A stretch of DNA of 64,000 nt from Raillietiella orientalis (taxonomy: Eukaryota), in NCBI GenBank assembly GCA_036172245.1, contig JAYWIR010000026.1, positions 1,054,001 to 1,118,000 of the forward strand. The letters are read 5' to 3'. Both the position numbers and the translations under genes were made by a program. Shown piece after piece: positions 1,994 through 33,068 of the stretch; position 1 is the stretch's first letter, and each line of letters opens with the position of its first letter. A model generated the notes under the pieces. It had not been told where the DNA came from. It did no database searches and saw only the letters and a list, made by a program, of their open reading frames with translations.

Positions 1994-4197
1994 CACAAGG
2001 CGTTCGACTGCGTGAACCAGAAGCTGTTCTTCGAGCTTATGGAACGCCTTGGGTTCCCGGCGCAACTCTTGCTGTATTTGCGCGCGTGCTGGCGCCACGC
2101 GCTATCCTGCATCACTTTCAGCGGCTGCCGCGTATATGGTATTCCCGTTCGTAGGGGCATCCGACAGAGCGACAGCTTAAGCCCGTTGCTCTTTAGCATC
2201 TTCTTTGAATTGGTGCTGAGAGCGTACAGGCTGACACTGTCTCACTTGCCATGCTCCTCCCCGGGTACGCCTGCCGTGGCCGCCTACGCTGATGACCTGC
2301 TTCTTCTGCTCCCCATGTCCACCCCGGCGTCCAGTGTCGAGAATTTCTTCGACCTGCTTCGTCGGGGAGCGGGCGTGAGCGTGAACAGAGAGAAGAGCGT
2401 GGTCGTTCCTGTGGGTGCGTCGTGGGAGGGGCAGTCCGACTGGATCCGCCTGGGGATCCCCACGGGCGGGTACTTTAAGTACCTTCGTGTTCTGTTGGGC
2501 GCTCTCCGCGCAGCCGAAGCGTGGGCGGAGTGTCTTCAGAAAGCAGAGTTCGCCATCATCCCGTTCATTAACGGCAAGTTTACCTTGCAGGAACGGGCGA
2601 CTATTTGAAACACCTTTGTGGTCCCCCTCCTCCGTCCCTTGTTTTTTGTTTTGGAATCCCCCCTATGCGGCGGAACAGCGGGCTACACGCCTGCTCAGGA
2701 ACGCTCTCTGGGGTCCTTTGAGATCCAGGATCCGCCTTAAAGATTTGGTTGCTCCTAGTCGTGATGCTGGTTTAGGTATCCTGACAATGGAGCGAATCGG
2801 ACTGCAGGTGCAGTTGCGACTGCTTGCACTGTGTGCCCAGCTATGGACATGCCCCCTGTGTGTGCCACCACGCATTCTCCTGCGGAGATGCGCCGGCAGC
2901 AAAGGATTTACCTCGCTTTTGCCGGGCACTCAATACAGGAAGCGTGGTTTCGGGTTTCCATTGCGGCAGTTGACCGCACTTCTGGAAGCTCACTCGTGGA
3001 TCTCCTGCCGCTTAATGAACTTTATAGCTCGGCGGCAGGAGTCTGTTTAATCCTGGGCGGCGTTCCAAGGAATACGCCCTGAAGATGTTCGCCCCCTGCG
3101 CCAATTTTTTCCACGATCCTTGGAAGAAGTACTGGAGGACTAGGTGAAGTTTTCTACCCTGGCTGCCACGCCTCTTTCCGCAGCGCTGTCTGCTCTCAGG
3201 GCAAGAAACGACAGTTGCGAACCGGCGAGGTGGGAGGTTTCCTGCACGAGAGCGGCAAAAACCAAACTCCTTGGCGCCTGGAAGACGAGTGAGGTGGCGG
3301 ACACCGCCACTTCTCGTGTTACTGCAAAGGGACTCCTCCGGTGGGCAGAAGAACTTGCTGTCACCCCCGAAGAACTTGTAGTCCCTCCACAGTGTATTGA
3401 CAGTTCGCTGCTCCTTCTTGCTTGGAAACAAGCCGTAATGCTTTTCGTTCACTGGGGTTTTCAGTGCAACCAACGTTGGCATCGTGACTCCGGGGGACTT
3501 GCGTCTGCGAACTGCGTTCGTTGCGGATCGACAGAGTCGATTCCGCACCTACTTCTGGACTGCGGTGCCCTACAAGGACCGTGGTGCAGTCTGGCAACAG
3601 CACTCTCGCATCCCGTGGACACCGCAAGAGATTTGTTGCTACGATTCTTCACGCCGAGCGGGCTGTCACTAAGCGCAAGGATTGCAACCATCGGTTGCAT
3701 CCGCGCGATAGTTTCCGTCCGCCAGGCGTTGGTAATCAACGGACAGCACCAAGAGGTAATCAGCAAAGCATCCTTATACATGGGAGCATCCGCTAGATGG
3801 CCTCATTTGACAGAGGAGACAAAAAGGAATCTCGCCGCAATACACCGCCGGTTTACACACCCTCAGCAGCGGCCAACCCGGTGATCATTGCCCTACCCTC
3901 CATAAACTAGTTTTGTATTTTCTTTTTACACCCGCGTCCCCATAGGCTCCGGAACATTTTAGGTGCTCATCGTTTAAATCCCCATGAGTACGGAGCCTAA
4001 CCAAAGACCCGTTACCCTTCCCTCCAGTTTTTGATTTTTGTTTGTTTCCCCTCATTCCCCCCACGCTGCGAGCGGTTTGTTTACCAGTCTTGCGTGCCGG
4101 TAATTTTTCTATGTTCTCTGTCGTTCTGTTGGTTGGGGACATTGTCCCTGACCAGTTTATTATTATTAATAAACGCCCCGGCGTGACCGGGTGATAA
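1994..4197 (+). mobile_element. Family A LINE copy A1, 3' half (RT from HKAFD onward, C-terminal domain, 3'UTR)
   Basis: Near-identical to 7897-9670 (GIRQxDSLSP, YADD, CVRCGSTESIPHLLLDC). Several nonsense changes. Ends AATAAACGCCCCGGCGTGACCGGGTG-ATAA. Confidence 0.93.
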
Positions 4198-4284
4198 ATT
4201 TCAATCGAGTGCGGACGTGTTTTTCTTCGCTCTCGTCTCCGTGCTTTCATCCGCTTCATCTTGGCGTCGTACATTTTGACGACG

Positions 4285-6193
4285 ATGTCGACCCAACCCG
4301 AAGCTACTGAAGTTGGAGGAACAGCATCCGGATCTGCAATCGCGAAACCGACGGCCGCCTCCACTTCGTCTTTCTCGCCAATGGAGAGGAGATTTGCTGA
4401 CGTTGCTGCCACAGCAGCCGTCAAAGGGAAACTACTCGACGAATCGGAGTTGCGGGCATACGTAGCCCAAGGCTATAGACCTGCTCTCCGATATAAGGTG
4501 AGTGGTTTTCTTTCTGCGCGCGACGGGAATCAGTTCAACGATGAACTGACCCGTGTTGGCGTGTGGGAGGAGGACCTTCTCGCCATTATGCCCGTAAAAG
4601 ACATGGGCTATTTCAAGGTGCGTTGCAAAGACGCTGCACTTGTGCAACGCTTGCTGCGCACCCCGTTGTCGATCCGTGGTTAGAAGGTCTTCCCGGCCGC
4701 CATGGACGACTCATTTGTGGTGGAGATTTTCGACATCGAGTCGGAAATCTCCGATATTGATATTCGGAACGCGTTGGCAAAATTCGCCACGGTCCATGCG
4801 TAGCAACCTCAAGGACTTCCCGTCCATACACAGCGGAGTCGCTGGAGTCCGGCTTACAATACCGGACCGCCGTCTGCTGCCCACCAAAGTACAGGTGAAA
4901 GACACAATCGTTCACCTGTGGTTCGTGGGCAAAGTAAAAACGTGCGAGCAATGCGGGAAGGAGGGGCATTGTTTGGATAAATGCCCCTCTGGAAAATGCC
5001 GTTATTGCAAACTATCCGGGCACCAATTGAAAAATTGCCCGGATCTTTTGCGAAAAAAGGCAGCCGCGGAGCTTCATCTTAAGAAACAAAGCGCGGATAA
5101 AAAGAAAAAATCTGCGAAAAACCTGGAGACCCCACGGCAGAAATTCCGAAAAAACGCGAGGCGGATTGTCGCCCCAAAGCAGCAGGAAACCTCGCACGCG
5201 AAGCCCTGCGCGCCCCCTCTCGCGGCAGGAAAGCCGCAAAAGAAAGGGTGCGGGGAATCCGGGACAATGATAAGTCCCCCTAGGCGCAATAGCTGTCCTT
5301 TCCAAGCACGCCCGGCTCTCTCGGAGTTCGAGCAACCGGCAGGGACGTCAATGGACAACGGCGGTAAGGACACTTCCAGTACCGTCAGATCCATCCCTTC
5401 ACCTCCTGCAGTGGCTGAGAAGCCCAAATCGGGTAAGAAGGGTTGTGCCGTGTCGACTTCGAAAGTCGGCAAAAAAAAATCCGCGTCGCGATCCAACACC
5501 GCGAAAGCGGAGAAAAATCTCACGCCATCGCAGTCGGAGAGCAAGCTCTCGACTGGCGCGGATGCCATGCCAACGAAGGGATTGAAAGCCCTTCCGAAGG
5601 CAGCGTCCATGACGAGCGTGTCGAAGCCATCGAAAGTGCTACCGTCCAAAGACGCGGATGGCTTCAAAGATGGCAATGGAGCACAATCTCCATTTACGGC
5701 GCCACGCGAAGTGAGGAACCGTAATGAAGTAAAGAAGACTTCAGCAAAGGTCCCTCGTGCAACTGCGCGGGAGCACGCTGAAAACGCGTGCGCCGGGAAA
5801 GCAGCCGTCACCAAAAGCGATGCTCTGGAGACGGAAAAAGACAACAGGACAGCTGTCAATCCAGCAGAACCTGTCACTACTTCGCGGAAAGCCGAAACCC
5901 GATCGAACATGCGCCGGTCGGACTCCAAAATGGATGCCGTTCCGATCACCGAGACGAGGACAACTCGTTCGAAAGCGTGTGCGCGCCGATCAAAAGTAGG
6001 CAGCCAGGCAACGCTCGCCGCGAAGCAACGCGAAGTCTCCACGAAACCCGACGGGGTTCAGCCTGGCGTGGAGGCATTACATGCATGCAGCACGACAGAG
6101 GACGGTGGCGACCGTCCCCTTCAGCCAGTCGTGCTGCTCGCCGTCTGCTCGCCGGATAAAGCGAGCAAAAAGCCGCCACCTTCCCAGCAGTAA
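4285..6193 (+). pseudogene. ORF1 of A2 (CCHC zinc knuckles, long K/S/A-rich tail), disrupted
   Basis: ATG at 4285, TAG at 4681 and a frameshift near 4800. Knuckles CEQCGKEGHCLDKC and CRYCKLSGHQLKNC. Confidence 0.85.
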
Positions 6194-8958
6194 TGCGGGG
6201 AATCGCGTCTTCTCGTCGTCTGTCCGTAACGTGTTGGAACGTGAACGGACTACAGAACGACGAGAAGAGGAGATTAGTAGCCAACGCCCTGCGCCCCTTC
6301 GACCTCGCGCTCCTGCAGGAGATTCACGTAATCTCCGACGAGCAGGCAGCCGAAATCGAGGAGCGCGCAGGCGGAACGCTACATTGGCGGTGCGGCGGCG
6401 CACACACGTGCGGCGTCGCGTTCCTCGTAAGAGGAAAAATGGCGGAAGCGGTGCGTAGTGTTCGTTTCGATGACGACGGACGGATAGGCCAGCTTGTCAT
6501 CAAGTGGCCCGAGTCCATCGATCTCGTCGTTACGAACGTCTACGCGCCGAGTGGCTCTCGCTACCTCGAAGAAAGAGTAGCCTTCCTTGGTGAGGTGCAG
6601 AGCCACTGGCTCAACAACTCCGGTTTCCAGGTGGCGCACCTCGTCGCTGGGGACTTCAACGTCCGCCTGCTCTCCGACGATTGGAGCCGCCCGAAGGAGC
6701 GCGCGCTGCCCATCGAGATGTGCGCGTCCGTGCACGCCGCCAACTTGATGGTCAGCGAACCTGGAATGAAAGGATCGCTCGATCACGTTTTCCTCGATAA
6801 AAACCTGCATTCGCGTGTGGGTAGGAGAGCAAGATTGTTGACTAGGCTTTCTGACCACCACAGGTTGGAGTTTGAGATCCTTCCGCCAGGCAGGGGGCCT
6901 CCGTTGCAAAACTGGAGGATGCAGGCGGATTGGCTTAGCCAACCGGAGGCTGCGGAGCATCTACGTGGATACCTCCGAGGCTTTGCCATTCTAGAACTTG
7001 CGGACTGGGACGATCTCAAAAGATGTGTCCGCGAGTTCTGCTGCCAATTCCCCTCGCACCGGCTTCCACGCGGTTTCGGAGAGGGCGTGGCCAACAGTAG
7101 AGACTTTCTGCAGGCCCGCACGTTTTCGAGACGCGCGGATGTCGGGCGTCTCGCAGAGTACAAGGCGATGGCTGAGCGCCAGGTCTGGCAGTCCGGAGCA
7201 GCATGCCTGTTGGACGACAAGGGCCAGGAATGTTCGGCCCCAGCCGAAGTACGCCGCATTGTGAGACGCTACTACTCCTCACTGTACGCGGAATCCCCGA
7301 CGGAGGATATTCTTTCTGAGATACTCCTGTCTCAGGATGCTCGTGTTGTCGGCGAGGAGGAACGCGAACGTCTCAACGAGCCCTTCACGGCGGATGAATT
7401 TTCGTCCGCAATCGCTGGGCTGAAGAGACGAAAGGCGCCAGGCGAGGATGAACTCCCTGCAGAGTTTTATCAGTGCTTTGCAGTGGAGCTCATTCCCTTG
7501 ATGCTGAAACTTGCGACGCTGATGAGTGAATCCGGGAATGTCCCGGATTCCTTACGCTCAGCGAAGGTGCGTCTCCTGCCGAAAGGCGGAGACTTGCGTC
7601 AACTTAACAACTGGCGTCCGATCACCTTGGTGAACTCGGACGTCAAGTTGTTTTCCAAGCAGTGGGTCGCGCGGTTAGGAAGTATCGCGGAATCTGTGGT
7701 GAGCCCGGAACAAACCTACGCGGTTCCGGGACGATCCATGGAGGCGAACATCCTTTTCGCGCGTACATGGAAGCAGCTGCAGGAAGTTGTGGCGCAGCAA
7801 AGCCAGGCTGCTGCGAAAGTCACTGCCGCAGGCAAGAAGAACAGGCGCCGACGGCAGGAGGGAACGCCAGGTGCCTTGGCGGTCGCGGTCGATCTCCACA
7901 AGGCGTTCGACTGCGTAAACCAGAAGCTGATTTTGGAGCTTATAAAACGCCTTGGGTTCCCGGCGCAACTCCTGCTGTATTTGCGCGCGTGCTGGCGCCA
8001 CGCGCTAACCTGCATTACTTTCAGCGGCTGCCGCGTGTATGGTATTCCCGTTCGTAGGGGCATCCGACAGGGCGACAGCTTAAGCCCGTTGCTCTTCAGC
8101 ATCTTCTTTGATTTGGTGCTAAGAGCATACAGGCTGACGCTGTCTCACTTGTCAAGCTTCTGCCCGGGAACGCCTGCCGTGGCCGCCTACGCTGATGACC
8201 TCCTTCTTCTGCTCCCCATGTCCACCCCGGCATCCAGTGTCGAGGATTTCTTCGACCTGATTCGTTGGGGAGCGGGCGTGAGCGTGAACAGAGAGAAGAG
8301 CGTGGTCGTTCCTGTGGGTACGTCGTGGGAGGGGCAGTCCGACTGGATCCTCCTGGGGATCTCCACGGGCGGGTACTTTAAGTTCCTTGGCATTCCGTTG
8401 GGCGCTTTCGGCGCAGCCGAAGCGTGGGCGGAATGTCTTCAGAAAGCAGAGTTGGCCATCAGCCCGTTCTTTAACGGCAAGTTTACCTTGCAGGAACGGG
8501 CGACTATTTGGAACACCTTTGTGGTCCCCCTCCTCCGTCCCCTGTTTTTTGTTTTGGACCCCCCCTATGCGGCAAAACAGCGGGCTAAGCGCCTGCTCAG
8601 GAACGCACTCTGGGGTCCGGCGAGATCCAGAATCTGCCTCAAAGATTTGTTAGCTCCGCGTCGGGATGCTGGTTTAGGTATCTTGACAATGGAGCGAATC
8701 GGACTGCAGGTGCAGTTCCGACTGCTGGCACTGGGTGCCCAGCTATGGACATCCCCCCTGTGTGTGTCAGCCCGCATTCTCCTGCGGAAATGCGCCGGCA
8801 GCGGAGGATTTCTCTCACTTTTGCCTTGCACTCAATACAGGAAGCGGGGTTTCGGGTTTTTATTGCGGCAGTTGACCGCACTTCTGGAAGCTCACTCGTG
8901 GATCTCCTGCCGCCCAATGAACTTTGAAGCTCGGCGGCAGGAGTCTGTTCAATCCTAA
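6193..8958 (+). CDS. ORF2 of A2: AP endonuclease + reverse transcriptase (C-terminus continues disrupted to about 9670)
   Basis: 921 aa ORF with WNVNGL, LQEIH, NVYAP, GDFN, LDHVF, SDH (EN) and KAPGEDELP, WRPITLVN, DLHKAFD, GIRQGDSLSP, YADD, KFLG (RT). Confidence 0.95.
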   Translation: MRGIASSRRLSVTCWNVNGLQNDEKRRLVANALRPFDLALLQEIHVISDEQAAEIEERAGGTLHWRCGGAHTCGVAFLVRGKMAEAVRSVRFDDDGRIGQLVIKWPESIDLVVTNVYAPSGSRYLEERVAFLGEVQSHWLNNSGFQVAHLVAGDFNVRLLSDDWSRPKERALPIEMCASVHAANLMVSEPGMKGSLDHVFLDKNLHSRVGRRARLLTRLSDHHRLEFEILPPGRGPPLQNWRMQADWLSQPEAAEHLRGYLRGFAILELADWDDLKRCVREFCCQFPSHRLPRGFGEGVANSRDFLQARTFSRRADVGRLAEYKAMAERQVWQSGAACLLDDKGQECSAPAEVRRIVRRYYSSLYAESPTEDILSEILLSQDARVVGEEERERLNEPFTADEFSSAIAGLKRRKAPGEDELPAEFYQCFAVELIPLMLKLATLMSESGNVPDSLRSAKVRLLPKGGDLRQLNNWRPITLVNSDVKLFSKQWVARLGSIAESVVSPEQTYAVPGRSMEANILFARTWKQLQEVVAQQSQAAAKVTAAGKKNRRRRQEGTPGALAVAVDLHKAFDCVNQKLILELIKRLGFPAQLLLYLRACWRHALTCITFSGCRVYGIPVRRGIRQGDSLSPLLFSIFFDLVLRAYRLTLSHLSSFCPGTPAVAAYADDLLLLLPMSTPASSVEDFFDLIRWGAGVSVNREKSVVVPVGTSWEGQSDWILLGISTGGYFKFLGIPLGAFGAAEAWAECLQKAELAISPFFNGKFTLQERATIWNTFVVPLLRPLFFVLDPPYAAKQRAKRLLRNALWGPARSRICLKDLLAPRRDAGLGILTMERIGLQVQFRLLALGAQLWTSPLCVSARILLRKCAGSGGFLSLLPCTQYRKRGFGFLLRQLTALLEAHSWISCRPMNFEARRQESVQS

Positions 8959-9692
8959 GCGGCGTTCAAAGGAATACGCCCTGAAGATCTTCGCCCCCTG
9001 CGTCAATTTTTTCCACAATCCTTGGAAGAAGTACTGTAGGCCGAGGTGAAGTTTTCTACCCTGGCTGCCACGCCTTTTGCCACTGCGCTGTCTGCCCTCA
9101 GGGCAAGAAACGACAGTTACCAACCGGCGAGGAGGGAGGTTTCCTGCACGAGAGCGGGAAAAACCAAACTCCTTGGCGCCTGGAAGACGAGTGAGGTGGC
9201 GGACACCGCCACTTCTCGTGTTTCTTCAAAGGGACTCCTCCGGTGGGCAGAAGAACTTGCTGTCACCCCCGAAGAACTTGTAGTCCCTCCACAGTGTATT
9301 GACAGTTCGCTGCTCCCTCTTGCTTGGAAACAAGCCGTGCTGCTTTTCGTTCACTGGGGTTTTCAGTGCAACGAGCGTTGGCATCGTGACTCCGGGGGAC
9401 TTGCGTCTGCGAACTGCGTTCGGTGCGGATCGACAGAGTCGATTCCGCACCTACTTCTCGACTGCGGTGTCCTACAAGGACTGTAACGTAGGCTGGCAAC
9501 AGCACTAGTGCATCCCGTGGACACCGCAAGAGACTTGCTGCGACGATTCTTCACGCCGAGCGGGCTGTCACTAAGCGCAAGGATTGCAACCATCGGTTGC
9601 ATCCGCGCGATAGTTTCCGTCCGCCAGGCGTTGGTAATCAACGGACAGCACCAAGAAATAATCAGCAAAGCCCCGGCGTGACCGGGTGATAA

Positions 9693-12600
9693 ATTTCAAT
9701 CTCCGCCTGCTAACAGGTGTGCCGGAAACACAAGTGAACGCGATGAACGAGTTGTGCGCCGCCATGCGTGCGCGCAACTTGTTCGCGGGTGAGAGGGGAA
9801 TGGTTCGCAGCATCGACCACGTCTTCCTCGACGCTGCCCTGTGTTCACGGGTCGGCAAACGGGGGAGAGTTGCGTCAACGTTGTCGGACCATTCCCGGTT
9901 AATTTTCGAGATGCGGCCTCGCGACAAAGGACCGCCATCCAGGGACTGGCGTCTGCCGAGGGACTGGACGCGACTTTAAAATGCGAAGGAACACCTTCGC
10001 GAATACCTGAGAGGCGTCACGCTCCGGAATCTTCAGGATTGGGACCTTTTTAAGGAATCGGTCCGGGAGTTCTGCGAGCAGTTCCCCCTGGACCGCCTGC
10101 CATCCGGATTCGGCGAGGGTCCTTGCAACCATCGGGCCTATTTACAGGTCCGTAGGTACGAGCGAACCCCTAATGTCCGTCGCCTGGCCGAGTACCGCGC
10201 CGGGGCCGAACTCCAAGCCTGGAAATCCAAGTCGGCCAGCTTGCTGGACGACCAGGGCCGGGAATGTTCGTCCCCGGCGTCGGTAAGGCATCTCGTGCGG
10301 AGTTATTATTCCTCCCTTTGCGCCAGGGCGCCCCCGGATCAAGATGCCTCTCGGCTCTTGCTTCCGGATGGTGCCCCGGCAAAAGGGGAGGAGAAGTCGT
10401 TAAGCCTCGATGAGCCTTTTACCACCGGCGAAATTCTCGCCGGTATCAAAAGGCTCAAGAGGCGGAAAGCTCTAGGGGAAGACGGCTTGCCCGCGGAGTT
10501 CTTTTAGAGCTTCGCGGAAGAGCTGGCACCCCTGCTGCTTAAGTTGATCAGGCTGATCCGAGACGAAGGCGATGTTCCCGCCTCGTTTCGGTCAGCCAGA
10601 GTGAGGCTCCTTCCGAAAGGGGGAGACCTGAGAAATTTGAACAACTGGCGTCCGATCACGATTGTGAATACGGACGCCAAGTTGGTTGCCGGGCTATGGG
10701 CTTCTGGTCTGGGGCAGGTTACAGAATCCATTATTAGCCCGGAGCAGACATATGCTGTTGCCGGGCGAAGCATGGATGCCAACCTCTTCTTCGCGAGCAC
10801 ATGGATGCACGCGCAGAGGTGTCAAAAGGAAGGGAAAGGAAAAATCGGCAACCTCACTTTGGGGCCGCCAGCAGGGCAGGGAATGGACTCCCGGGCGGGG
10901 AAGGGGACCTTAGCGCTCGCAGTCGATCTCCATAAGGCGTTCGACTGTGTTGACCAGGGACTTTTGTTGGAGCTCCTGGGTCGCATGAACTTCCCACCCT
11001 CCTTGATCAACTACCTGCGCTCCTGCTGGCGCCTTGCGATAATTTCCGTCTCTTTCAGCAGTCAGAAGGTGCATGGCGTGCCGGTGCGGCGGAACATCAG
11101 GCAGGGAGATAGCCTGACTCCCCTGCTCTTCAGCAGCTACTTTGAGTTGGTGCTGAGAGCCTACAGGGTGACTTTGGCCTCCTTGCCGAGCTCGTGTCCC
11201 GGCACGCCCGCCGTAGCAGCCTATGCCGACGACCTTCTGCTCCTGTTACCTATGTCCACCCCGGCGAAGGCGGTCGGAGACTTCTTCGATCTGCTCAGCC
11301 GTGGGACCGGACTGCAGGTCAACAGGGCGAAGTCGTCGGTGGTGCCAGTAGGTGCGGCGTGGGCAGGGCAGCAGGACTGGGTCCGTCTGGGGATCCCCAC
11401 GGCGAGGTGCCTCAAGTACCTTGGTGTGCCGTTGGGTGACTACTCCCCTGCAAAAGCGTGGTCCAGCTGTCTTCAAAAAGTTGAGACGGCGATCGGCCCG
11501 TTCCTGGAAGGCAAGTTTCACTTGACGGAAAGGGTCGCGGTTTGGAACGCCTTCGCGGCCCTTATCTTCCGCCGCTTGCTTTTTGTTTGCCTAGCCCCAA
11601 GAGTAGTTAAAAAGAGGACGAAGGACCTCCTCCGCATCGCCCTTAGGGGCAAGGGGAGGCCCCGAGTCCCTCTGCAGGACTTGTGCGCTTCGCGTCGGGA
11701 CGGCGGCCTTGGCCTCCTGACGCTGGAGCGGGTGGAAATCCAGCTGCGGTGGCAAACCCTCGCAATCGCAGCGAAGATGTGGAGCACCCCTCGGTGCGTT
11801 CCGGCCCGCCACCTCGCCAGGTGTGTGTCCCGATGCGAAGGACTCGCGTCGTTTCTTCTGTGCCTTGGCTGGAAGATCCGAAGATGCGGCCTTATGCTCG
11901 GACGCATAGCAACCTTGGCGAAGACGAACGGTTGGATGGTTTGTGGCCCCGCCAACTCCTCCGCCTGGTTGGAGGAGTCTGCTGGCACATGGGCTAAGCT
12001 GAACCGGAGAAGTGAAAACCACATGAACTGCCTGCGAATCGCCCCATACGCCAACCGCACCCTGCGGGAAATACTGGAATTTCCCCGCAGTCGCAGGTGG
12101 GCGTTGACGACCCCCCTTGCTACGGCGATGCCCTACCTCCTGAGGGCGCCTCAGGATCGCCAGAAGCCGAGGTGGCAAGTCACCTGCCAGATCGCAGGCA
12201 GGGAGAAGATGTTAAGCGGCTGGACCACAGGAGAACTGGCGGACGCCACGACCCCGACCGTCCAGCCGCGTGGATTAATGAGATGGGGCGAGCTACTCGC
12301 CATCCCTACGGATGTGCTGAAGTGGCCCCCGTTACTAAAGGAATCCAGGATCCTGCCCCTTAAGTGGCAAGAGTCGGCGTTGCTACTGCTGCACTGGGGT
12401 ATACCCTGCAACGCACGCCGCTTCCACTGGACAAGGGGAACTGTGGATCCTGAGTGTGTCAGGTGCGGAGAGCGGGAATCGCTCTCCCACCTTATTGTGG
12501 ACTGTGCTGCCATCCGACCCCTCTGGGAACGGTTCGGGGCGACCCTCGTCCTCCCTAGGGGCAGCACCCCCAGAGACGTTCTTCGGCTTCTCTTCGTGAA

Positions 12601-13039
12601 GGACGCACTGCAGCCAGCCGCAGCCATCGCAGCCTTGTGCTGTGTCCGTGGCATCGTGGCGGCATGGAGCGACGCCAATAACGAAAAAGTGGATCCACAC
12701 GCGAGGGATGTCATCCCATACGCCCAACGCTTCATGCGGAGAGCTGCCGGATGGCCCCAACTGGGTAATATACGGACGGATCTCGAGGGCTTCCTTCAAC
12801 GGATGGGCCCTCCTCACAGCGCTCAGTGATCCCTTCCCTGCCCTCCAGCTTCTTTTTGTCTGTTTACTTTTTATTTTTTCTTTTGTTTTATCCCCATCCC
12901 CCTTCGCTGCTGAGGAACGCTACGCTGGGCTGCGTCCCGGCGTCCCGGCAGGTCCAGTGCATATGGCCGTGAGCGGGGCCTTGTACCGCGGATGTAGAGT
13001 TTTTTAAAAATAAACGCCCCGGGCGTACCCGGGTGTATA
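9693..13039 (+). mobile_element. Family B LINE copy B1, from the EN GDFN motif to the 3' end (target of A1/A2)
   Basis: Begins (D)FNLRLLTG..SIDH..LSDH, then linker, RT, U-rich 3'UTR and terminal hairpin at 13018-13033. Confidence 0.93.
10544..12829 (+). CDS. Open RT + C-terminal zinc-finger part of ORF2 of B1 (upstream part has stops)
   Basis: 761 aa: WRPITIVN, DLHKAFD, IRQGDSLTP, YADD, KYLG, CVRCGERESLSHLIVDC. Confidence 0.9.
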   Translation: MIRLIRDEGDVPASFRSARVRLLPKGGDLRNLNNWRPITIVNTDAKLVAGLWASGLGQVTESIISPEQTYAVAGRSMDANLFFASTWMHAQRCQKEGKGKIGNLTLGPPAGQGMDSRAGKGTLALAVDLHKAFDCVDQGLLLELLGRMNFPPSLINYLRSCWRLAIISVSFSSQKVHGVPVRRNIRQGDSLTPLLFSSYFELVLRAYRVTLASLPSSCPGTPAVAAYADDLLLLLPMSTPAKAVGDFFDLLSRGTGLQVNRAKSSVVPVGAAWAGQQDWVRLGIPTARCLKYLGVPLGDYSPAKAWSSCLQKVETAIGPFLEGKFHLTERVAVWNAFAALIFRRLLFVCLAPRVVKKRTKDLLRIALRGKGRPRVPLQDLCASRRDGGLGLLTLERVEIQLRWQTLAIAAKMWSTPRCVPARHLARCVSRCEGLASFLLCLGWKIRRCGLMLGRIATLAKTNGWMVCGPANSSAWLEESAGTWAKLNRRSENHMNCLRIAPYANRTLREILEFPRSRRWALTTPLATAMPYLLRAPQDRQKPRWQVTCQIAGREKMLSGWTTGELADATTPTVQPRGLMRWGELLAIPTDVLKWPPLLKESRILPLKWQESALLLLHWGIPCNARRFHWTRGTVDPECVRCGERESLSHLIVDCAAIRPLWERFGATLVLPRGSTPRDVLRLLFVKDALQPAAAIAALCCVRGIVAAWSDANNEKVDPHARDVIPYAQRFMRRAAGWPQLGNIRTDLEGFLQRMGPPHSAQ

Positions 13040-13141
13040 CCTTCACGGCCAGTTGGAGGATGTGTTTTTCCTTCACTCCTGGAAGAGTAGTAGGAAAGCG
13101 CTTTCTTGTGTGTGGTGTTTTGTGTACATCGTCGGTGTCCA

Positions 13142-14965: not shown

Positions 14966-15387
14966 CAGGCGAGATACGGCCGACACCCTGTGTGAGCTCG
15001 ACCTGGCCCTGCTGCAGGAGATCCACGTCATCACCGCGGCAGACTCCCAGGAGATCGAGACGATCGCGGGGGGTCGGTTGTATTGGCGATGCAGCCTCCG
15101 CAACACCTGCGGGGTCGCGTTCTTCGTGAAGCCGGCTATCGACGCTGCCGTGAAGGGCGTGTGCTTCGATGACGACGGTCGTGTCGGTCAGCTGACTCTC
15201 GACTGGTCCGACTCGATCGATCTGATCGACACGAATGTGTACGCCCCAACCGGTCAAAAGGGTTACAGCAACCGTACCAGGCTTCTTGAATCCCTGAAGC
15301 GCGACTGGCTGGCGAACACGAGCGTGTAGAAGGCTCACCTGATAGCGGGAGAATTCAATCTCCGTCTGCTAACAGGTGGGCGGCTGG

Positions 15388-17097
15388 TTGTCACCCGGGT
15401 GCGCCGGGGCGTTTATTATAAACTATCGGGGAACAGGGTTCCCGGACAAAGGGGAAAACAAGAGACGAAGGAGGTGGGATCCCCGACACGCAGGTCGGTG
15501 TGCCGAAAGTCCGGAACGGGAGGGAAGGGACCACAAACACACTACTATATAAAAAAATAAAAGAAAAATATGGAGGGCAGGGGACAGGGGTCTTTGGTAA
15601 ATCCGTTCCTTCCTTTCAAAACCGGCGATGGATGCCGGCGATTTCTCTCCTTACGCCCTGTGGCAGATGGGCCCACTGGGCAGCCGACGACATGTTTGCG
15701 CTGGCTAATCCGGTGGGCTGACAAAGGATGGCCAGCTTCTCCAACTCTCGGTGGGCCTTGTCGATGGCGCGGGTGCAACACACGGTTGCAACGACAGCAC
15801 CCAATGACAGGCCGCCTGGCGTCTAGAAGCGGCGCATCATCTCCCTCGCGGTGTCCCCCTGGTGCAGGAGAGCTGGAGCCAGCCTCCGCCACAGTCCTTC
15901 GAGGACACCGCAGACGAAGAGCAGAGGCGGGAGCGTTTCCACTTCCCCGCACCGCTTACAGTTTGGGGAGACGACTCCCCCGGAAACAAGGTTCGTGCGC
16001 TGGTTGGAGTGAAAACCCCAATGCACGAGCATAATCACGTCCTTCTTCCACGAAAGGGGGAACACAGAAGTGTTGAGACACGAGGGAGGAACCACAATTT
16101 CTTCAAGGGGCACACTCAAGTTTTCGCTCCACCGAAGGAGTCCCTTCGGAACGTGGCGAGGTGTGGCGGCGTCCGCCAGCTCGCAAGTCTTCCAGCCGCC
16201 AATAGGTCGCGTTGTTCCTGCGATGGTGCAGGCGACCTCCCATCTCGCCGGTTCGCAACTGTCATCTCTTGCCCTGAGGGCTGACAGTGCGTCTTTTAGG
16301 GGGGTGACGGCCAGGCGGGTCCACTTCTCCTGGCTGTTGCACACCTCATCCACCGTGCAGTACGGGGAGAGGTGAGCGCAACGGAGTTCCAGGAGGGAAA
16401 CATCCTGGTGCTTTGTCCAGCCATGCAACGGTTCCTGCCGCCGGGCTTGAAAGTTCGTTGGGCGGCAGGAGATCCATTCCTGGGCTTCCAGGAGCCGATA
16501 CAGCGGTTTCAAGGGGAAACCGAAGCTTCTCGTGGCGCGCTCCGTGTGCGGCCGCAGCGACAGAAGTCCATCGCTGGCTGTGCAGCGCCGCAAAAGCAGG
16601 CGCGCGGGAGCGCACCACGGAGTGGACCAAAGGTTGGCGCACAGGGCCAACATCCGAAGCTGCACCTGCAGCTCGATTCTCTCCAGCGTCAGGATGCCTA
16701 AGACAGCATCCCGACGCGGAGCCGCCAAGTCTTTCAGGCGGATCCTGGACCTCGCAGGTCCCCACAGAGCGTTCCTCAACAGGCTGTGCGCCTGGAGCTT
16801 GGCCGAGTAGGGGGGCGGGCAAACAAAAACCAGGGGGCGCAAGAGAGGGGCAACGAAGGTGTTACATATCGTGGTCCGATCCGGCAGGACGAACCTGCCA
16901 TGGTGGAACGGGCTCAGGGCATTCGAAGCCTTCCGAAGGCAGTCCGACCACACTTCCACTGGGCTGATGTTCCCCAGCGGAACGCCCAGATATTGCACGG
17001 AGGAAGCGGTCGGGATCCCCAGGCGGATCCAGTCGGACTGCCCCTCCCACGCCGCACCAATAGGTACGACCACGCTCTTGCTCCGGTTTACGCTCAT
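15388..17097 (-). mobile_element. LINE 3' half, family G (A-related C-terminus, distinct 3'UTR)
   Basis: SVNRSKS..QYLG..ARDDSCEPARWEV..CKRCGEVETLPPLLFVC. Ends AATAAACGCCCCGGCGCACCCGGGTG-ACAA on the minus strand. Confidence 0.9.
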
Positions 17098-17807
17098 GCC
17101 CCCGTTGTTGAAAGAATCCAGGATCCTGCCCCTCAAGTGGCAAGAGTCGGCGCTGCTCCTGTTGCACTGGAGTCTACCCTGCAACGCGCGCCGCTTCCAC
17201 TGGACGAGGGGAGCTGTGGATCCTGCGTGTGCCAGGAGCGGGGAGCGGGAGTCGCTTCCCCACCTTATTGTGGATTGTGCTGACCTCCGACCCCTTTGGG
17301 AACGGTTCGGGACGACCCTCGGGCTCCCTACGGGCAGCACCCCCAGAGACGTTCTTCGGCCCCTCTTCGTGAAGGACGCAATGCAGCCAGCCGCAGCCAT
17401 CGCAGCCTTGTGCTGCGTCCGTGGCATCGTGGCGGCATGGAGCGACGCCAACAACGAAGGAGTGGGTTCACAGGCGAGGGATGTCATCCCGTATGCCAAA
17501 CGCTTCTTGCGGAGAGCTGTTGGATGGCCCCAACTGGGGAATATGCAGACAGACCTCAAGGGGTTCGTTTGACGGATGGGCCCTCCCCACAGCAACCAGT
17601 GATCCCTTCCCTGCCCTCCAACTTCTTTTTGTTTGTTTCTTTTTATTTTTGTTTTTGTCTTATCCACATCCCCCTTCGCTGTCGGGGAGTGCCACGCCGG
17701 GCTGCGTCCCGGTGTCCCGTCAGGTCCTGTGTTTACTTTCGTGGTGGGGCCTCGTACCACGCATGCAGAGTTTACAAATAAACGCCCCGGGGGTACCCGG
17801 GTGATAA
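17098..17807 (+). mobile_element. Family B LINE copy B3, 0.7-kb 3' fragment
   Basis: Highly similar to 12325-13035, with 3'UTR and terminal hairpin. Confidence 0.93.
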
Positions 17808-20418
17808 CGCCGAAGCCCGGCGGAAGACGTTCCAGGGGAAACTGGTCGCAAAACTCGCGGACTGAGCACTTCATTTCGTCCCAGTCCGCGAGCGTCTTAA
17901 GATGGAATCCTCGCAGGAAGGCGCGCAGATGTTCCGCCGCTCCTGCGAGGCGCAACCAGTCCCCTGGCAGGCGCCACGTTTTCAGGGGAGGGCCCTTGTC
18001 GCGTGTATGTATCTCGAGCACGAGCCGTGGATGGTCGGACAGCTGTGCCGGGAGCGTTCCTCGATTTCCCACCCGCGTGCATAGGTGGTTGTCGAGGAAC
18101 ATGTGGTCGATGTTTTGATCTCTCCCGGCATCAGCGGCCAACAAGTTGCGCGCATTCATGGCTGCGCACAACTCGTTGACCAGTCGTGCTCGACTGCTGG
18201 GCGCACCTTCCAGCAGGCGGAGATTGAAGTCGCCCGCGATGAGGTGCGCTCGCCGTACGCTTGCTTCAGCTAACCAGTCTCGCCGCAGGGATTCGAAGAA
18301 AGCAGTGCGTTCCTCGGCCCTGTGGCTGCTCACCAAGGCGTACAGGTTCGTCACCCCGAAATCGATCGATTCGGACCACTTGAACACAAGCTGTCCAACT
18401 CGACCTTCCTCGTCGAACCTGACGCTGCGCAGTGCGTTGTCGACGGCTGGCTTCAGCATAAAGGCCACTTCGCAGGAACGGTCGTTTCCGTTCCTCCACA
18501 GTAGGCGCCCTCCTGCGATTCTTCCGATTTCCTGGACATCTCCTGCTCTGAGAACGTGCGTCTCTTGCAGGAGCACCAGGTCGAAGTCTCGCAGTATGGC
18601 GGCTACGTCTCGCCTCTTACCGTCGTCGCGCAACCCGTTGACGTTACAACAGGTGATGCGTAAGCGGCGGCAGGAGATGAGCCCACGGTGTATTTATGGT
18701 GGGGTGGAGGCGGCCTCCTCCCTTTCTGGAGGCGGCTCGTTGGTGGCCGTGACGACGGTCGGCTGCTCACACGGGAGCACGTCGTCTACAGCGACTTCCA
18801 TTGGGCTGGCTTCCGTGACACGGACGGGAGAAGGGTCGCGTGGCGCGACGCACATTGCCTCTGCCTCCGCACCCGAGGACATGGGCTCCTCTACTTGGGA
18901 TGAGGCGACACGTCTGAGGCATCCGGCCTTCTTGCCAGCCTTTCTCTTCGGCACAGCTGTGGAAGTAGAGCAACCGGCTTCAGCATCCGACCCGGAATAT
19001 TCCGGGCCCTTCGCCGTCGCGGGTCATCTCAAGGCCTTCTTTTCGGCCTTGGCAGGCTGCCGCAACATGGCTGCCAGCTCTTCCGCGGCCTGCGCGAAGG
19101 TCGCGTCTGTGATACGCGCCGCCTCATCGCTTTCCGCACCGACGATCGGTGCAGGCGCGACGGGGACGGCTTCATAGACCGGCGCGCAGACGTCCTTCGC
19201 TGGCAATGCCGGAGCGGCATTCTCTTCAGCTGATGGTGACGTCACTGCGGGCACGATCGGCTCCGACACGACGGTATCAATCGCGTTCACCGTTACTTTC
19301 TTCACGGCTCTTGCGATCGACACGCGTTCGATTTTCACTGAACAAGCGCGGACTGCCGGCTTCTGCTTCTTCGGAGCCGCCTTGTTAATTCTTTTTACCT
19401 CCTTGACGGAGGCTTGTTCTTCTTCACCACCTTCTGCCAACCTTCCTCGTTCTCGGCCCATTTTTCAGCTGGTTGTTCGCTGGAGGATGGCTGAGCAGCG
19501 GGTTGGTCGGCAGGGCGGGATTCTGCCAGTTGTTGGCTTCGGTCCTTTTCTTTCGGCGTCTCTTCCTTTCTCGCGCCTGACGGAACGGACCTTTTTCGGT
19601 TGGGGCACATCCGTCTCATGTGTCCCTTCTCCCCACAGCTTAAGCACACGATGTTGGGGCATTTCTTTTTTAAATGCCCCTACACCTGGCAAAAGCCGCA
19701 GTGAACGGGTTTCCCCACATACCGCAGGTCAATCTCCTCCTCCCCGAACTGCAGTCTGTGGGGTAGCCCACCCTCGGCACGGACCGTCACGCGCGCAGCG
19801 GCGTACGCACTAAAAGCCTTGGTGTAACCCAGGACATTGGGTTTCGCCCACAACGCGTGGACGGTTCCGTATTGCTCTAAAGATTCGCGAACGGCGGTCT
19901 TTGCCATTCGCATGGTGATGCCGGGGAGTCCGCCGTGAACGGGAAGATTCTTCGACCGTTCACGGTCACCGGCAGGCGGAGCAGCTGCTGAGCCATCCCT
20001 GCAGACTTGCAGTTCAGCTCAACCAGCTGCCCGCCACTTCGCACGGAAAGCCCGAGGACTTCGTCCTCCGGGACTTTCAATTGCTTAAATTCGGCCGCGA
20101 ACGACCGCAATACCGCGGAAGAGAACAGGCCACCTACCTTGTACAGGAGGGCCGGGTTGTATCCGTCGGCCATGTACGCCCGCTGTTCCTCTGCGGGGGG
20201 CGGCGCATGCGCCGCCACCACCGCGCTCCAAGCCCTCGCCGGGGCAGGGGACGAATCCGGGGGGGTGTTGGCACCAACATCCATGGGTTGGGGGGACGAG
20301 GCTCGCTGACCCCCCTCCGCCGTGTTTGCGGTGCCCAGGAACAACCGTTCCACAAAATACCGCAAACACTTGCAAAAAAAAGGTTTTCGGCAGCACCGAA
20401 AAACACGTCCTCTCACTG
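17808..20418 (-). mobile_element. Family C LINE copy C1, 5' half (ORF1 disrupted, EN, start of linker)
   Basis: 5' motif at 20399-20410. ORF1 fragments with CGFCQV and CLSCGEKGHMRRMC. EN LQETH, NLYA, GDFN, IDH, LSDH, up to ERLPPGFG. Confidence 0.9.
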
Positions 20419-20419
20419 C

Positions 20420-20986
20420 AGGTCCGGAATGAGCACTCGCCGTTCCTCGGCGAATGTGTCACGCCTCCGGGCTTCAGCCCTGCGGGCGCTCGCTCAGGCG
20501 CGAGTAACTCGTCGTTCAGCAGCGTTATCGGACTCCTTTACGGAGTCTGATGCTCGCGCGATCGACGTGCGCTTGCATCCGTCCCATCGCAACGGAATCG
20601 TCTTCTCGGCGCTCACAGAGGCGGACTTGCAATCGTTGACGGCGCTGGCTTTTTCCTGGGCAGAAGAACCCTCCGCGCGTGTTTTCTTGTTCACGCGGCT
20701 GTTCTTTGCCTTCAAAGAGCTCGCGGATGGAGGTTGCGAAGGCTTCGATGGAGATTTTTCTTTTCTCCTCTCCACAATCTCCCATTCTCCGTCACAATTT
20801 TCGGACGCTTTCGCGACTTTCGTCTCGGAAACCTCCGGAGCTTTCGCTGCCGCCTCTAGGGGCGTCGCTTTCGCCACGCCTTTAGAAGGAGGCAGCGGAG
20901 TCACCTTCTTGACAGTCGGGAGATCGCTCCTCTCCTGCAGAGTCGGCGAACTTCTGCGCAGCTCAAAGTATTGTGCACTTGACAAA
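20420..20986 (-). mobile_element. Internal ORF1-tail fragment of another LINE lineage (H)
   Basis: K/S/A-rich reading frame containing GEWEIVERRK, matching the GW(Q/E)xV motif of the other ORF1s. Confidence 0.55.
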
Positions 20987-21115
20987 TTAATCAGTTCATT
21001 GTGCTCGTGTGTGCCCGGAGAGGGGAAGTTTTCCAAACGAAACTAGAAAAGAAGCGCCGAGGAGATCGCGAAGGAAGACCTGCAGTGGTCCCGTGCAGCA
21101 AGACCAGCTGCCAGG

Positions 21116-22903
21116 ATGCAGGCACCTAGGAGAGGAGTGGAGAGACCGTCGTCCCCCATGGAAGCCATGGAGGTAACGTGCGGCAACGGCGAGGCGGTGG
21201 CAGGCATGCCGAGGATCGCGCCCGCGGCGGGCTTTGCTGCGCCGGCGGCAGCGATGCGAAGGGTCGTGCCCGCGGCGACGACGGCGGAGGTCGTGCCCGC
21301 GGCGGCGACGCCGAGGATCGTGCCCGCGGCGGGGAAGGTCGCGCCTGCGGCGGCGATGCCGAGGGTGCCGCCCGCGGCGGTAACGGCGGCAACGTCGAGG
21401 TTTGCGCCCGCGGCGGTGGCGTCCCAGGCGGGACCCGCGGGCGTCCACGCGGTGCAGGGAGCGACGCCATCTTGTTCGGCTGCGAAGTCGCAGCCCTTTT
21501 CTTATGCATCGGTGGCGGCTGGACAGGCGAGTGTCCACCCACCTAGGAAATTCGGTAAGCCGCTTAGCGGAAAAGTACTAAAAGTGGACCGACCAATAGT
21601 CGAAATAGGCCCCAACGTGAAGCCCATTATCTTCAAGACGGGGCTAATAAAATTTAATAACATCAGGGAGGTCTATTTGTCCCTCGACAAGACGGACATA
21701 GACTTTGATCGCATTCAGGCGATCATTCCATCAAACAACGGGTTCACAGTCTTTACAGACTGTGAAAACATTAGAGAGCGATTGATCCAGAAGGGGATCA
21801 ATATACAACGACGGATGGTTTGTGGTATTGGCGAGATGCCATACACAACCGTCTTTTTAAACGGCATCTCCATCCTCACACCGCAACTAGCGGTGTGGAA
21901 TTACTTGGAGCAGTTTGGGGAAGTTCTGGACCTTGATTTCCAGAACTTCTCTGAAAACATATTTTCTGGCGACATGATCGCCAAGATGAAGTTGAGGGAG
22001 GGAGTGGTGATCCCTGGATTGGCCGTTATTGACGAACAATCCCAGGGAGTGAATGTGCGTTACCGGCAACAACCGGTATTCTGCACCGGGTGCAAGCAGT
22101 TCGGTCACAGGGCCGGCTCTTGCCCAACGTGTCGTTGTTTCCCCTGCGGCAAAGTAGGACATCAAGTCCGAAACTGCCCGCATCCGGAGGTGTGCTCCTT
22201 CTGCAAGAAACACGGACATGCGAAATGGAGCTGTCCGGAGTTTGAAAACTGCAGAAGGATTCGAGGTCTCTCTCCCGTGAGAGAGAGAAACATCAAGGAG
22301 GCCGAACAGCCTCAGAAGGCAGGAAGGCAGAAAAAAGTGAAAGAAGCTGTCCCGGTGTCGGCGGACGGCTTCATAGAAGTGGGAAAGAAGGGAAAGAGGA
22401 GGATGCTCGTCAAGGAGCAAGGAACTCCTCAAATCCTGGAAGCAGCAGAGCAGGAAGGCGAGAAGATTGAGGTAGCGCAGGAAGGCGCGAAGGAAGAGAG
22501 ACAGGAAGCCACTAAAGTGTCGCAGGAGGCTCTGCAGACTACGGAGGAGTTGGCAACACTGGCGGAGGAGATCATGGAGGTGCAGAGCGGTCCTCAGCAA
22601 GAGAAAATCTTGCAGAAGATCTGCACTGCACAAGAGAACATCAACCAGGTGGTGGAGGTCGCAGAACCCGAGAAGTTAGAGGAACAGCTTCTCGACGTGA
22701 AGGCGAACTTCTGCGCCAAGGTCGAGATAGAGGCGCTATCTCGAAAATTGATCGAGCGCGCCGAACACTCGACGGAGGAGGCGGAAGTAACCGACCTCTC
22801 CGGAACAGAGAGTGACGTCGGCAGCGAGAAGCCCGCTGCTTCTTCATTGTCTGGAAGAGCACGCTCTCTCAGACAGAAGAAGCTCAGGAAGGCCAAGAAA
22901 TAG
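21116..22903 (+). CDS. ORF1 of D1: Ala/Pro repeat N-terminus, RRM-like region, 3 CCHC knuckles, acidic coiled-coil tail
   Basis: 595 aa intact ORF. CTGCKQFGHRAGSC, CFPCGKVGHQVRNC, CSFCKKHGHAKWSC. Confidence 0.9.
   Translation: MQAPRRGVERPSSPMEAMEVTCGNGEAVAGMPRIAPAAGFAAPAAAMRRVVPAATTAEVVPAAATPRIVPAAGKVAPAAAMPRVPPAAVTAATSRFAPAAVASQAGPAGVHAVQGATPSCSAAKSQPFSYASVAAGQASVHPPRKFGKPLSGKVLKVDRPIVEIGPNVKPIIFKTGLIKFNNIREVYLSLDKTDIDFDRIQAIIPSNNGFTVFTDCENIRERLIQKGINIQRRMVCGIGEMPYTTVFLNGISILTPQLAVWNYLEQFGEVLDLDFQNFSENIFSGDMIAKMKLREGVVIPGLAVIDEQSQGVNVRYRQQPVFCTGCKQFGHRAGSCPTCRCFPCGKVGHQVRNCPHPEVCSFCKKHGHAKWSCPEFENCRRIRGLSPVRERNIKEAEQPQKAGRQKKVKEAVPVSADGFIEVGKKGKRRMLVKEQGTPQILEAAEQEGEKIEVAQEGAKEERQEATKVSQEALQTTEELATLAEEIMEVQSGPQQEKILQKICTAQENINQVVEVAEPEKLEEQLLDVKANFCAKVEIEALSRKLIERAEHSTEEAEVTDLSGTESDVGSEKPAASSLSGRARSLRQKKLRKAKK
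21200..21450 (+). repeat. Degenerate CCCGCGGCG-core coding repeat (about 21-27 bp units)
   Basis: Encodes VVPAATT/IVPAAG/VPPAA units. Also present at about 26880-27120. Confidence 0.7.
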
Positions 22904-22916
22904 GTCTTCCCCTTTT

Positions 22917-25900: not shown

Positions 25901-26435
25901 CAACCTGTTAGCGATCGGCACGACGCTCTGGAGGAGTGACCTTCCGCCGGGCACCCAGGATGACCTCCTGATGTTTTATCACATAGGAATCCAGAGTGGG
26001 TCCCGATTGCAGCACTTTACAGGAAGACGGGAAGACCGAGACTGCGCAGCATGTGGAGACGACGACACGAGACTTCACGTCTTGACGTGTCCCACACTCC
26101 TGCATGACTGGCTGATCCTGAAAAGGATCATAGGACTTACCAACAAGTCCGTTATGGAGATCCTCGCCGGGATGTTTCATGGGGATGGTAATGTTCCCTG
26201 TTACAATCCCATGGTGAGGACGACCATAGCCCTCTTCATCACCGCCATACTTGTGCGGTGGTGGAAAATGAGGAAAGCCAGAAGAGCCGCACCACCGATG
26301 GAGATCCTACAAGGGCTCTTGAAGAGGGAAATCGGCATCAGGAACTGCGGGAAGATCCACGCCTGGACGTACCGATTCATCCTGAAGAGGATCCAGGACG
26401 ACGCCCGGGACCATCCAGCTGGAATTCCCCCCTGA
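22917..26435 (+). pseudogene. ORF2 of D1 (EN + RT + C-terminal finger), single frame with three nonsense codons
   Basis: WNVNG, LQETH, GDLN, SDH, DMEKAFD, GVRQGDSLSP, YADD, CAACGDDDTRLHVLTC. Stops at 23898, 24330 and 25488. Confidence 0.92.
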
Positions 26436-26626
26436 AAAGCAGAACTCTAGTGCAACCCAAGGACCCCCAAGTGCAAAATAATTGTATTGAGTGAATGAGA
26501 GTGCGAATGTAAATTTTGTATTTTTATAGAAAAATAAACTTACCCCACCCCTTGTGGGACTTGGGGAAACCTTGCCGAGTCGGTGACCTGGCTTCGAGGT
26601 TCATTGTCTTGCGCGCACGACGAGGG

Positions 26627-32293: not shown

Positions 32294-33068
32294 CTTGCAG
32301 AGTCGCTGAAGGGGCGGCTGCATGCAGCGTGTTTTTGCGCGGCGCGCCGCAGCTTCCTACGGGTGTCGTAGCCGCCGCACAGACCCCTACGTTGGATTGG
32401 GGCTTTGCCGGTTTGGGAAGGGACAGCGGGTTGGAGCTGGAAGTCTCCGCCCTGTGGCGATCTTCTTGCTCACCTACCTTTCCTACGGAGGTTCTTCGGA
32501 TATTTCTTGGTTCCTGCCTTGGAGAGGTGTTTCCCAGTACGGCAGCGAGGGCAGGCACGGCACGCGTCGAACCTTCGCGCCCCTTTCTAATTGGCTTCCC
32601 CGCCGCGATTTCTGTCTTTTGGGGCGTTGCGGGCGTGTACGCCTTTTGTATTGCCGCGTATTGCTTGGCACTTTTCCCAAGACTCCGCGTACACTGCTTT
32701 TTCTTTGAAGCAGCGCCCTTTTGTGCGTTGGTCTCTTGAAAGCGACGAACTTCCGCTGCTGCTTTTTTTTTTGCAAGAAGCGGGCACTTTTTTATTTCGT
32801 TCCTGGTTTCTTTGCAATAGCGGCATTTTGGGGTGGAACATTCATTCATTCGGTGTCCCTCCTTGCCGCACTGCTCGCACGCGCGAGTCTGCCCTATAAA
32901 CCACAGGTGAACGACCGTGCCATTCACCTGGAGCTGCTCGAACACAACTTGCCTGTTCGCGACGGTGAACCTCGAGGAGGCTTGTCCAATGTTGACAGAG
33001 GGGAAATCCTTTAGAGGATTTGGCCTCCTCCACAGAGCGTGCACGGTGGCGATCTTTGCTAGCACAAT
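32294..33068 (-). mobile_element. A-like ORF1 fragment (zinc knuckle region)
   Basis: LKDFPSV..VHLWFIG..CEQCGKEGHRMNEC, homologous to 4780-5100. Confidence 0.88.

Follow-up and report, generated by a model that had tools for sequence, protein, structure and literature searches.

A LINE family with a probable target in the endonuclease active-site codons of other LINEs, from a nested retrotransposon cluster of Raillietiella orientalis

Sequence-specific LINEs (long interspersed nuclear elements) are known for ribosomal DNA (rDNA), telomeres, small nuclear RNA and transfer RNA genes, microsatellites and one DNA transposon. The lineages named as sequence-specific among LINEs with an apurinic/apyrimidinic endonuclease (APE)-type enzyme are the Tx1 and R1 clades (PMC4640811), and a close counterpart of the case described here is Tx1L of Xenopus laevis (Tx1 clade, L1 group), an APE-type LINE that occupies one specific site inside another transposable element, the DNA transposon Tx1D, and whose endonuclease holds the specificity and nicks its target in vitro (PMC1950540; PMC6719617). 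Here we describe a LINE family, family A, from a 64,000-nucleotide stretch of DNA of Raillietiella orientalis (GenBank assembly GCA_036172245.1, contig JAYWIR010000026.1, positions 1,054,001 to 1,118,000 of the forward strand; hereafter the window). Like Tx1L, A is found at a specific sequence within another element; unlike Tx1L, it lies in the coding sequence of other LINEs, at the codons of the endonuclease motif GDFN, and it is known here from sequence alone.

Other groups of elements offer useful comparisons. The endonuclease of R1Bm cuts both strands at defined bonds (PMC1919474), and R1Bm, TRAS1 and SART1 of the R1 clade, together with R2, are sequence-specific LINEs that use highly conserved, multicopy 28S rDNA or telomeric repeats as safe sites (PMC1919474; PMC4640811); in contrast to those of A, their targets are host genes or repeats rather than other retrotransposons, and R2 has a restriction-like endonuclease. 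A comparison with homing genes has been drawn for sequence-specific LINEs (PMC4640811): homing endonuclease genes, inteins and group I and II introns share with A a target kept constant by selection, although their mechanism is wholly different and, in the case of A, no splicing restores the target and the host LINE is destroyed. As to genomic setting, Zepp (Coccomyxa/Chlorella) and ZeppL (Chlamydomonas) are L1-type elements with a gag-like first open reading frame (ORF1) that form guanine–cytosine (GC)-rich clusters of nested, 5′-truncated and tandem copies and are said to target existing copies (PMC8226300; PMC3446292). Their likeness to A is one of description (L1-group LINEs with a gag-like ORF1 in nested clusters), and clusters of nested, tandem, 5′-truncated copies are likewise found in the window. 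However, it is existing copies that Zepp is said to target, whereas A would target other families and not itself, and the available portions of those papers give no nucleotide-precise site for Zepp (PMC8226300; PMC3446292). A full-text literature search that did not extend to the original Zepp papers found no LINE with a nucleotide-precise target in the endonuclease active-site codons of other LINEs. By analogy, A is best read as working like a Tx1L- or R1-type specific element within a Zepp-like nested cluster.

We consider it likely that A is a sequence-specific, APE-type, L1-group LINE targeting the (G)DFNLRLL codons in the endonucleases of two further families, B and C, a degree of confidence set by the two independent loci and the few contigs on which it is based. 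Three copies of A (A1, A2 and A3) were recovered by self-comparison of the window with blastn; coordinates of these and other features are collected in the table below.

A3, on the minus strand, ends ...GACCGGGTTATAA at 41830 and is flanked on both sides by the 9-bp repeat ACTTCAATC: its tail runs into ACTTCAATC-TCCGCTTGCTGGCAGGTGCGCCC, and before its truncated 5′ end, where there is a 3-nt microhomology (ATC), stands ...CACCTTATTACGGGTG-ACTTCAATC. The insertion splits HLITGD/FNLRLL of a family C endonuclease, with flanks that read ...HLITGDFN and FNLRLLAGAP. In a paralogue, C2, which is 85-90% identical to C, the same region is uninterrupted, and the two blastn pieces that relate it to the flanks of A3 (17098-18230 with 40676-41829, and 18221-18636 with 43825-44240) have the duplicated bases in common. 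With its 9-bp duplication and an empty site preserved in C2, A3 is thus a textbook case of insertion.

The other two copies share one locus. A1 ends ...GACCGGGTGATAA at 4197, followed by the 9-mer ATTTCAATC and then by the 5′ end of A2, GAGTGCGG. The tail of A2 ends at 9692 in the same way as that of A1 and is followed by ATTTCAATC (9693-9701) and then by TCCGCCTGCTAACAGG, a right flank that reads FNLRLLTG of a family B endonuclease. Residues 154-918 of the second open reading frame (ORF2) of A2 align to 9692-11980 with 53% identity (tblastn), so that this flank is the FN-onward part of the endonuclease and reverse transcriptase of another LINE, here B1, itself 78-87% identical to other B copies (blastn). 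The tandem of A1 and A2 may represent a third event. An earlier note on this DNA had reported both loci, and its account holds up: the A1 and A2 tails, 9-mer flanks and B endonuclease continuation are present base for base, and the repeats around A3 and the split family C gene are borne out by the sequence, by tblastn and by the empty site in C2.

At both loci A lies in the sense of the target frame, with the break between the G and the A of the Asp codon of GDFN, and 17 of 19 bases match between the 3′ flanks at B1 and C. Two loci, in two families, thus hold independent copies at one nucleotide position and in one orientation, with a tandem copy in addition, which is a small sample. Around the site, nucleotide identity is 63-68% between B and C and 58-65% between A and either of them, while the A copies are 92.9% (A1/A2), 89.4% (A1/A3) and 88.7% (A2/A3) identical (blastn). 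Since divergence is much greater between the B and C flanks than among the A copies, the two loci are separate events and, to judge from these flanks, the window holds two clearly independent insertions of A. The earlier note counted three events in two families, alike in nucleotide and sense; of this the families, nucleotide and sense stand and the count falls to two loci, A1 and A2 sharing one; its view that the junctions do not stem from one segmentally duplicated event is upheld (B and C 63-68% alike, A copies 89-93%).

Six matches to the motif TTCAAYCTBCGYYTGCT (≤2 mismatches) lie in the window, where shuffled sequence gives an expectation of 0.30, and every one of them is a LINE GDFN site: A's own, the two that A occupies, and three, in B2, C2 and B3, that are empty. 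With five foreign sites and 128,000 position-and-strand choices, the odds of a second random insertion at the homologous nucleotide and in the same sense are about 4 in 100,000. Nine hairpin-tailed LINE 3′ ends, corresponding to eight events, are present in the window, and the target flank follows three of the nine, all of them A copies. The other six (B1, B2′, B3, B4, D and G) have five unrelated flanks, B2′ and B3 being one event that was later duplicated; the flank of G, a sister family of A, is CCAGCCGCC, unlike the A target.

Additional junctions come from one public DNA run of a related strain, the contigs of which contain 42% of the window's sampled words. We compared 137 contigs; junction counts refer to the best-supported loose ends, with 98 more beyond those listed. 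A contigs in this run differ from the A of the window by ~2-4%, with identities of about 97-98%. In at least three contigs an A tail and ATTTCAATC lead into the consensus TCCGCCTGCTAAC... behind 4206 (agreement 0.94); among them is a 1040-nt contig of long-form A that passes through the tail and ATTTCAATC to 4206 and continues for 10 letters. A junction of long-form A with a B-type flank occurs in the run and is absent from the window. In a 3755-nt contig ATTTCAATC stands directly before the 5′ end of A, preceded by 21 letters unlike the A tail. Two further runs gave only short matches, at the C-rich positions 4021-4064, and no RNA runs were among the listed runs sharing the window's words. 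A metagenome contig that provided the sole match to the 22-nt A tail was rejected as a chance match, because the contig is otherwise unlike A.

Under site-specific insertion, the target of A would span ~15-20 bp, G/AYTTCAATC/TCCGCYTGCT, encoding (G)DFNLRLL in related but distinct LINE families of the same cluster, and the flank expected at A 3′ ends would be AYTTCAATCTCCGC. By analogy with Tx1L and R1Bm, in which specificity is encoded by an endonuclease that, once purified, nicks the target (PMC1950540; PMC1919474), the A endonuclease would nick the antisense strand at the Asp codon, between its G and A (5′-GATTGAART/C-3′), the reverse transcriptase would prime on A RNA recognised through its 3′ stem-loop instead of poly(A), and the sense strand would be cut 9 bp downstream, after CAATC. 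Priming by complementarity between tail and target was rejected, as only 1 nt can pair. Because the duplicated 9-mer and the downstream half would rebuild most of the site, a second copy could then land behind the first, producing the arrangement A1-9 nt-A2. A's own GDFN codons (AAC GTC, two bases off) may spare A from itself.

Specificity might instead reside in the RNA. If the endonuclease were weakly specific, a read-through 3′ extension of A could anneal to GDFN DNA and direct priming there; 3′ read-through probably sharpens R1 and R2 insertion, the same conserved sequence follows every A copy seen, so that read-through RNA would be homologous to all B and C sites, and the A tail lacks poly(A) and can pair with the nicked target over a single nucleotide only. 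We nevertheless think RNA-guided homing of this kind rather improbable: the downstream copy at A3 is the C-type ACTTCAATC and not the ATTTCAATC of a B donor, the bases beyond it are also C-type, and a nick at the same phosphodiester bond would still be required.

Several observations weigh against site-specific insertion at GDFN codons. The window provides only two independent loci, a small sample, and the perfect site in C2 and the near-perfect site in B2 are both unoccupied. G, which has an A-like tail, lies antisense in the B2 endonuclease, 36 nt downstream of the position used by A. What precedes A1 is not the left half of B: its 5′ flank belongs to the 5′ region of another LINE, on the minus strand and running off the window, so that A1's own insertion event cannot be reconstructed (GGGGAAGACTTCC at ~1944 was tried as the missing left half of B and rejected, as that stretch lies in the 5′ region of the minus-strand LINE). 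Head-to-tail copies also occur in families B and H, where nothing points to a common target, and this makes the A1-A2 tandem weak evidence for re-targeting, and no contig of the related-strain run bridges the A1/A2 junction among the matches listed. Finally, at least two contigs of that run carry an A-type tail ...GATAAAT followed by CTCGGCCGCTCC... (CTCGGCCGCTCCTCCTGCAGAGATCACG, behind window 4199), a different or strongly altered flank with 0 matches in the window at ≤3 mismatches; by eye, it could be a second landing site (it resembles a LLQE-motif region) or a shortened and diverged GDFN site.

The position of G within 36 nt of the same codons, albeit antisense, and that of a B-like insertion, B4, antisense right behind the NVNG codons, would suit an element that chromatin, nicks or replication intermediates attract to LINE clusters; the two sites would then coincide by luck or through a local structural hot spot at the GDFN codons. 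The first 54 kb of the window consist entirely of nested LINEs, several in tandem, and Zepp is said to target existing copies and to build up tandem arrays (PMC8226300). Such regional targeting seems very unlikely to us, given that the A junctions share nucleotide, sense and a 9-bp duplication in targets only 63-68% alike, at ~4 in 100,000 per extra event, and that contigs of the related strain show the same flank while the flanks of non-A families are unrelated.

The tandem itself could have arisen by re-targeting of a regenerated site, in one event from a tandem or read-through template, or by unequal exchange. Some of these routes would reduce the number of events: A1 and A2 could be the product of one insertion from a tandem or read-through template, of unequal crossing-over or of an assembly join at the shared 35-nt tail and 9-mer, and A2 and B1 may even have moved as a unit. 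Tails and 9-mers of A1 and A2 are identical at 34 of 35 bases, B1-B2 and H0-H1-H2 also run head to tail, and the related-strain run, in which no listed contig joins A1 to A2, has both junction halves in other contexts. Even so, re-targeting predicts a spacer of precisely the nine duplicated bases, which arbitrary read-through would not be expected to leave, and without A1 two independent junctions and the contigs of the related strain remain; we accordingly see little prospect that fewer events explain the pattern. Spread of a single event by duplication was rejected, since identity is 63-75% between the flanks and 89-93% among the A copies. Recombination at the conserved motif was rejected too, since the partner at the junction, the 3′ untranslated tail of A, has no homology to the site.

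Site-specific insertion does not carry with it all that has been proposed for A. The earlier note had held that A exploits a target that its hosts cannot easily change, a claim now weakened: A's own site (GACTTCAACGTCCGC; ACTTCAACGTCCGCC) and the empty B3 site (GATTTCAACCTGCGC; ATTTCAACCTGCGCC) differ while GDFN is kept, and such third-position and neighbouring-codon variants undercut the idea. Its suggestion that A inactivates competitors holds in a trivial sense, since insertion splits the target ORF2; selected killing of rivals at an immutable target, as opposed to the usual safe-haven logic of multicopy targets, is unproven. The payoff would more likely be a multicopy, dispensable landing site within the LINE cluster, with destruction of ORF2 as a by-product. 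A bolder and, in our judgement, doubtful proposal casts A as ‘hyperparasitic’: its endonuclease would have evolved to read the GDFN codons of its rivals, its own AAC GTC would confer immunity, each insertion would both gain a safe site and kill a rival, and the same principle, recognition to the nucleotide of conserved coding sequence in LINEs, would build Zepp-like nests such as those at algal centromeres. Were the pattern to hold genome-wide, A would stand as a clear example of a retrotransposon family that has specialised on others, would supply a concrete, testable mechanism for the growth of nested LINE clusters by self-targeting, and would extend the few candidates for programmable insertion by an APE-type endonuclease that is compact and has a long recognition site.

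By its coding content and termini, family A is an L1-group, APE-type non-LTR (long terminal repeat) retrotransposon with a predicted complete set of endonuclease catalytic motifs and a nearly intact ORF2. ORF1 of A2 contains two CX2CX4HX4C (CCHC) knuckles at ~4935-5040, read from the sequence, and has no Pfam match. ORF2 of A2 is open over 6193-8955, followed by TAA at 8956-8958, and holds an endonuclease, a reverse transcriptase and a C-terminal CX2CX7HX4C; the stop is private to A2, as A1, A3 and the related-strain contigs have TGG there, and the C-terminal Cys/His motif CVRCGSTESIPHLLLDC lies in the continuation of A ORF2 (tblastn). Pfam identifies the endonuclease as Exo_endo_phos (E 1.7e-12, aa 26-233 of the frame from 6160) and the reverse transcriptase as RVT_1 (E 1.2e-20). 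Among solved structures, human L1 ORF2p is the nearest relative of A ORF2 (E 1e-44); against human L1 endonuclease chains the A endonuclease scores E ~1e-6, and it has a short region from GDFN to the DH motif. In the protein databases the nearest entries are 20-29% identical and either unnamed or plant/charophyte L1-like, and the Atlas matches for A are generic LINE clusters.

A1 matches A2 over 1994-3769 (against 7897-9671, 92.9%) and A3 over 2198-4206 (against 43828-41821, 89.4%; blastn). Marks of target-primed insertion comprise the 9-bp duplication of A3 and the 5′ truncation of A1 and A3, with no long terminal repeats, and A2 has the 9-mer on both sides. All three copies terminate in CCCGG-CGTGA-CCGGG-T(G/T)ATAA; in the long form AATAAA stands just upstream. 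Zepp has a poly(A) tail, which A lacks. About 400 bp of the 3′ untranslated region (UTR; 3770-4171, against the junction 9671/9672 in A2) are present in A1, A3 and a contig of the related strain and absent from A2.

Table 1 Features of the window discussed in the text.
Feature	Position	Strand	Description
A1	1994-4197	+	5′-truncated, start at ~A2 coordinate 7897; long 3′UTR form; tail ...AATAAACGCCCCGGCGTGACCGGGTGATAA
Duplication copy between A1 and A2	4198-4206	+	ATTTCAATC (sequence)
A2	4207-9692	+	Full length: 5′UTR, ORF1, ORF2, short 3′UTR form
A2 APE-type endonuclease domain	6235-6859	+	Motifs NVNG, QE, GDFN, DH and SDH all present (alignment)
A's own GDFN site	6649-6671	+	GGGGACTTCAACGTCCGCCTGCT; compared with occupied targets, AAC not AAT and GTC not CTC
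A2 3′ terminal stem-loop	9672-9692	+	CCCGG-CGTGA-CCGGG plus TGATAA; poly(A) absent
Downstream duplication copy of A2	9693-9701	+	ATTTCAATC, first bases of the B1 target (sequence)
B1	9693-13039	+	Family B LINE, endonuclease FN codons to 3′ end; target of A2 and A1
Unoccupied B2 site	15352-15370	+	AATTCAATCTCCGTCTGCT; codon GAA, not GAY
G	15388-17101	-	Sister of family A, nucleotides 68% identical; 3′UTR on the same long plan; tail GGGTGACAA
C2 empty site	18222-18230	-	Single ACTTCAATC inside uninterrupted GGGCGACTTCAATCTCCGCCTGCTGG
Unoccupied B3 site	36069-36087	-	ATTTCAACCTGCGCCTGCT
C, endonuclease gene split by A3	41357-44240	-	Residues ~19-157 at 44240-43824, 154-313 at 41830-41357 (tblastn)
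Downstream (3′-side) duplication copy of A3	41821-41829	-	ACTTCAATC (sequence)
A3	41830-43825	-	5′-truncated, start at ~A2 coordinate 8103; long 3′UTR form; tail ...GACCGGGTTATAA
Upstream (5′-side) duplication copy of A3	43826-43834	-	ACTTCAATC (sequence)
Shared stem-loop 3′ ends	4168-4197, 9663-9692, 13011-13039, 15388-15420 (-), 17775-17807, 35430-35457, 45800-45840, 51090-51115		

The first ~54 kb of the window are a nest of GC-rich (52-63%) L1-like non-LTR retrotransposons. A tblastn search of the 64-kb window with the A ORF2 finds ~20 LINE fragments on both strands, and several long frames in the window match Exo_endo_phos and RVT_1 (Pfam). From 54000 to 64000 the GC content falls to 43-54% and LINE matches are fewer; this is probably the edge of the cluster, and its open reading frames have no Pfam matches besides a weak RVT_1 at 63262-63726.

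The segments 17098-20409 and 40676-46751 form an old segmental duplication (80-86% identical) of a block comprising a B 3′ end and C, into one copy of which A3 and B4 were later inserted. B4 (44240-45840, plus strand), a 5′-truncated, B-like insertion, has a duplication of 11-13 bp, TCGCGCAACCC, and stands antisense in the family C codons GLRD directly after NVNG; C2 is without it (empty site 18623-18636). The 5′ side of G abuts a B-like 3′ fragment, as if ~2.6 kb of B had been lost.

Other LINEs of the cluster show a variety of arrangements. The 3′ end of B1 is followed by ~12 nt (13040-13051) and then by the 5′ end of B2, as a head-to-tail tandem, and the family H tandem (20940-32309) consists of a 3′ end at ~20940 followed by two 5.6-kb units (21043-26586 and 26726-32309) that are 86% identical. 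At their 3′ ends, families A, B, D, G and I have in common AATAAA or a near variant and, after it, a CCCGG-N5-CCGGG stem-loop near the end, with poly(A) absent, which suggests stringent 3′-end recognition by the reverse transcriptase. B3 (35458-41356) has an inverted 5′ part (35458-38678) and a direct 3′ part (38679-41356) that overlap by 11 bp in element coordinates (B1 10312-10322), and it looks like a product of twin priming.

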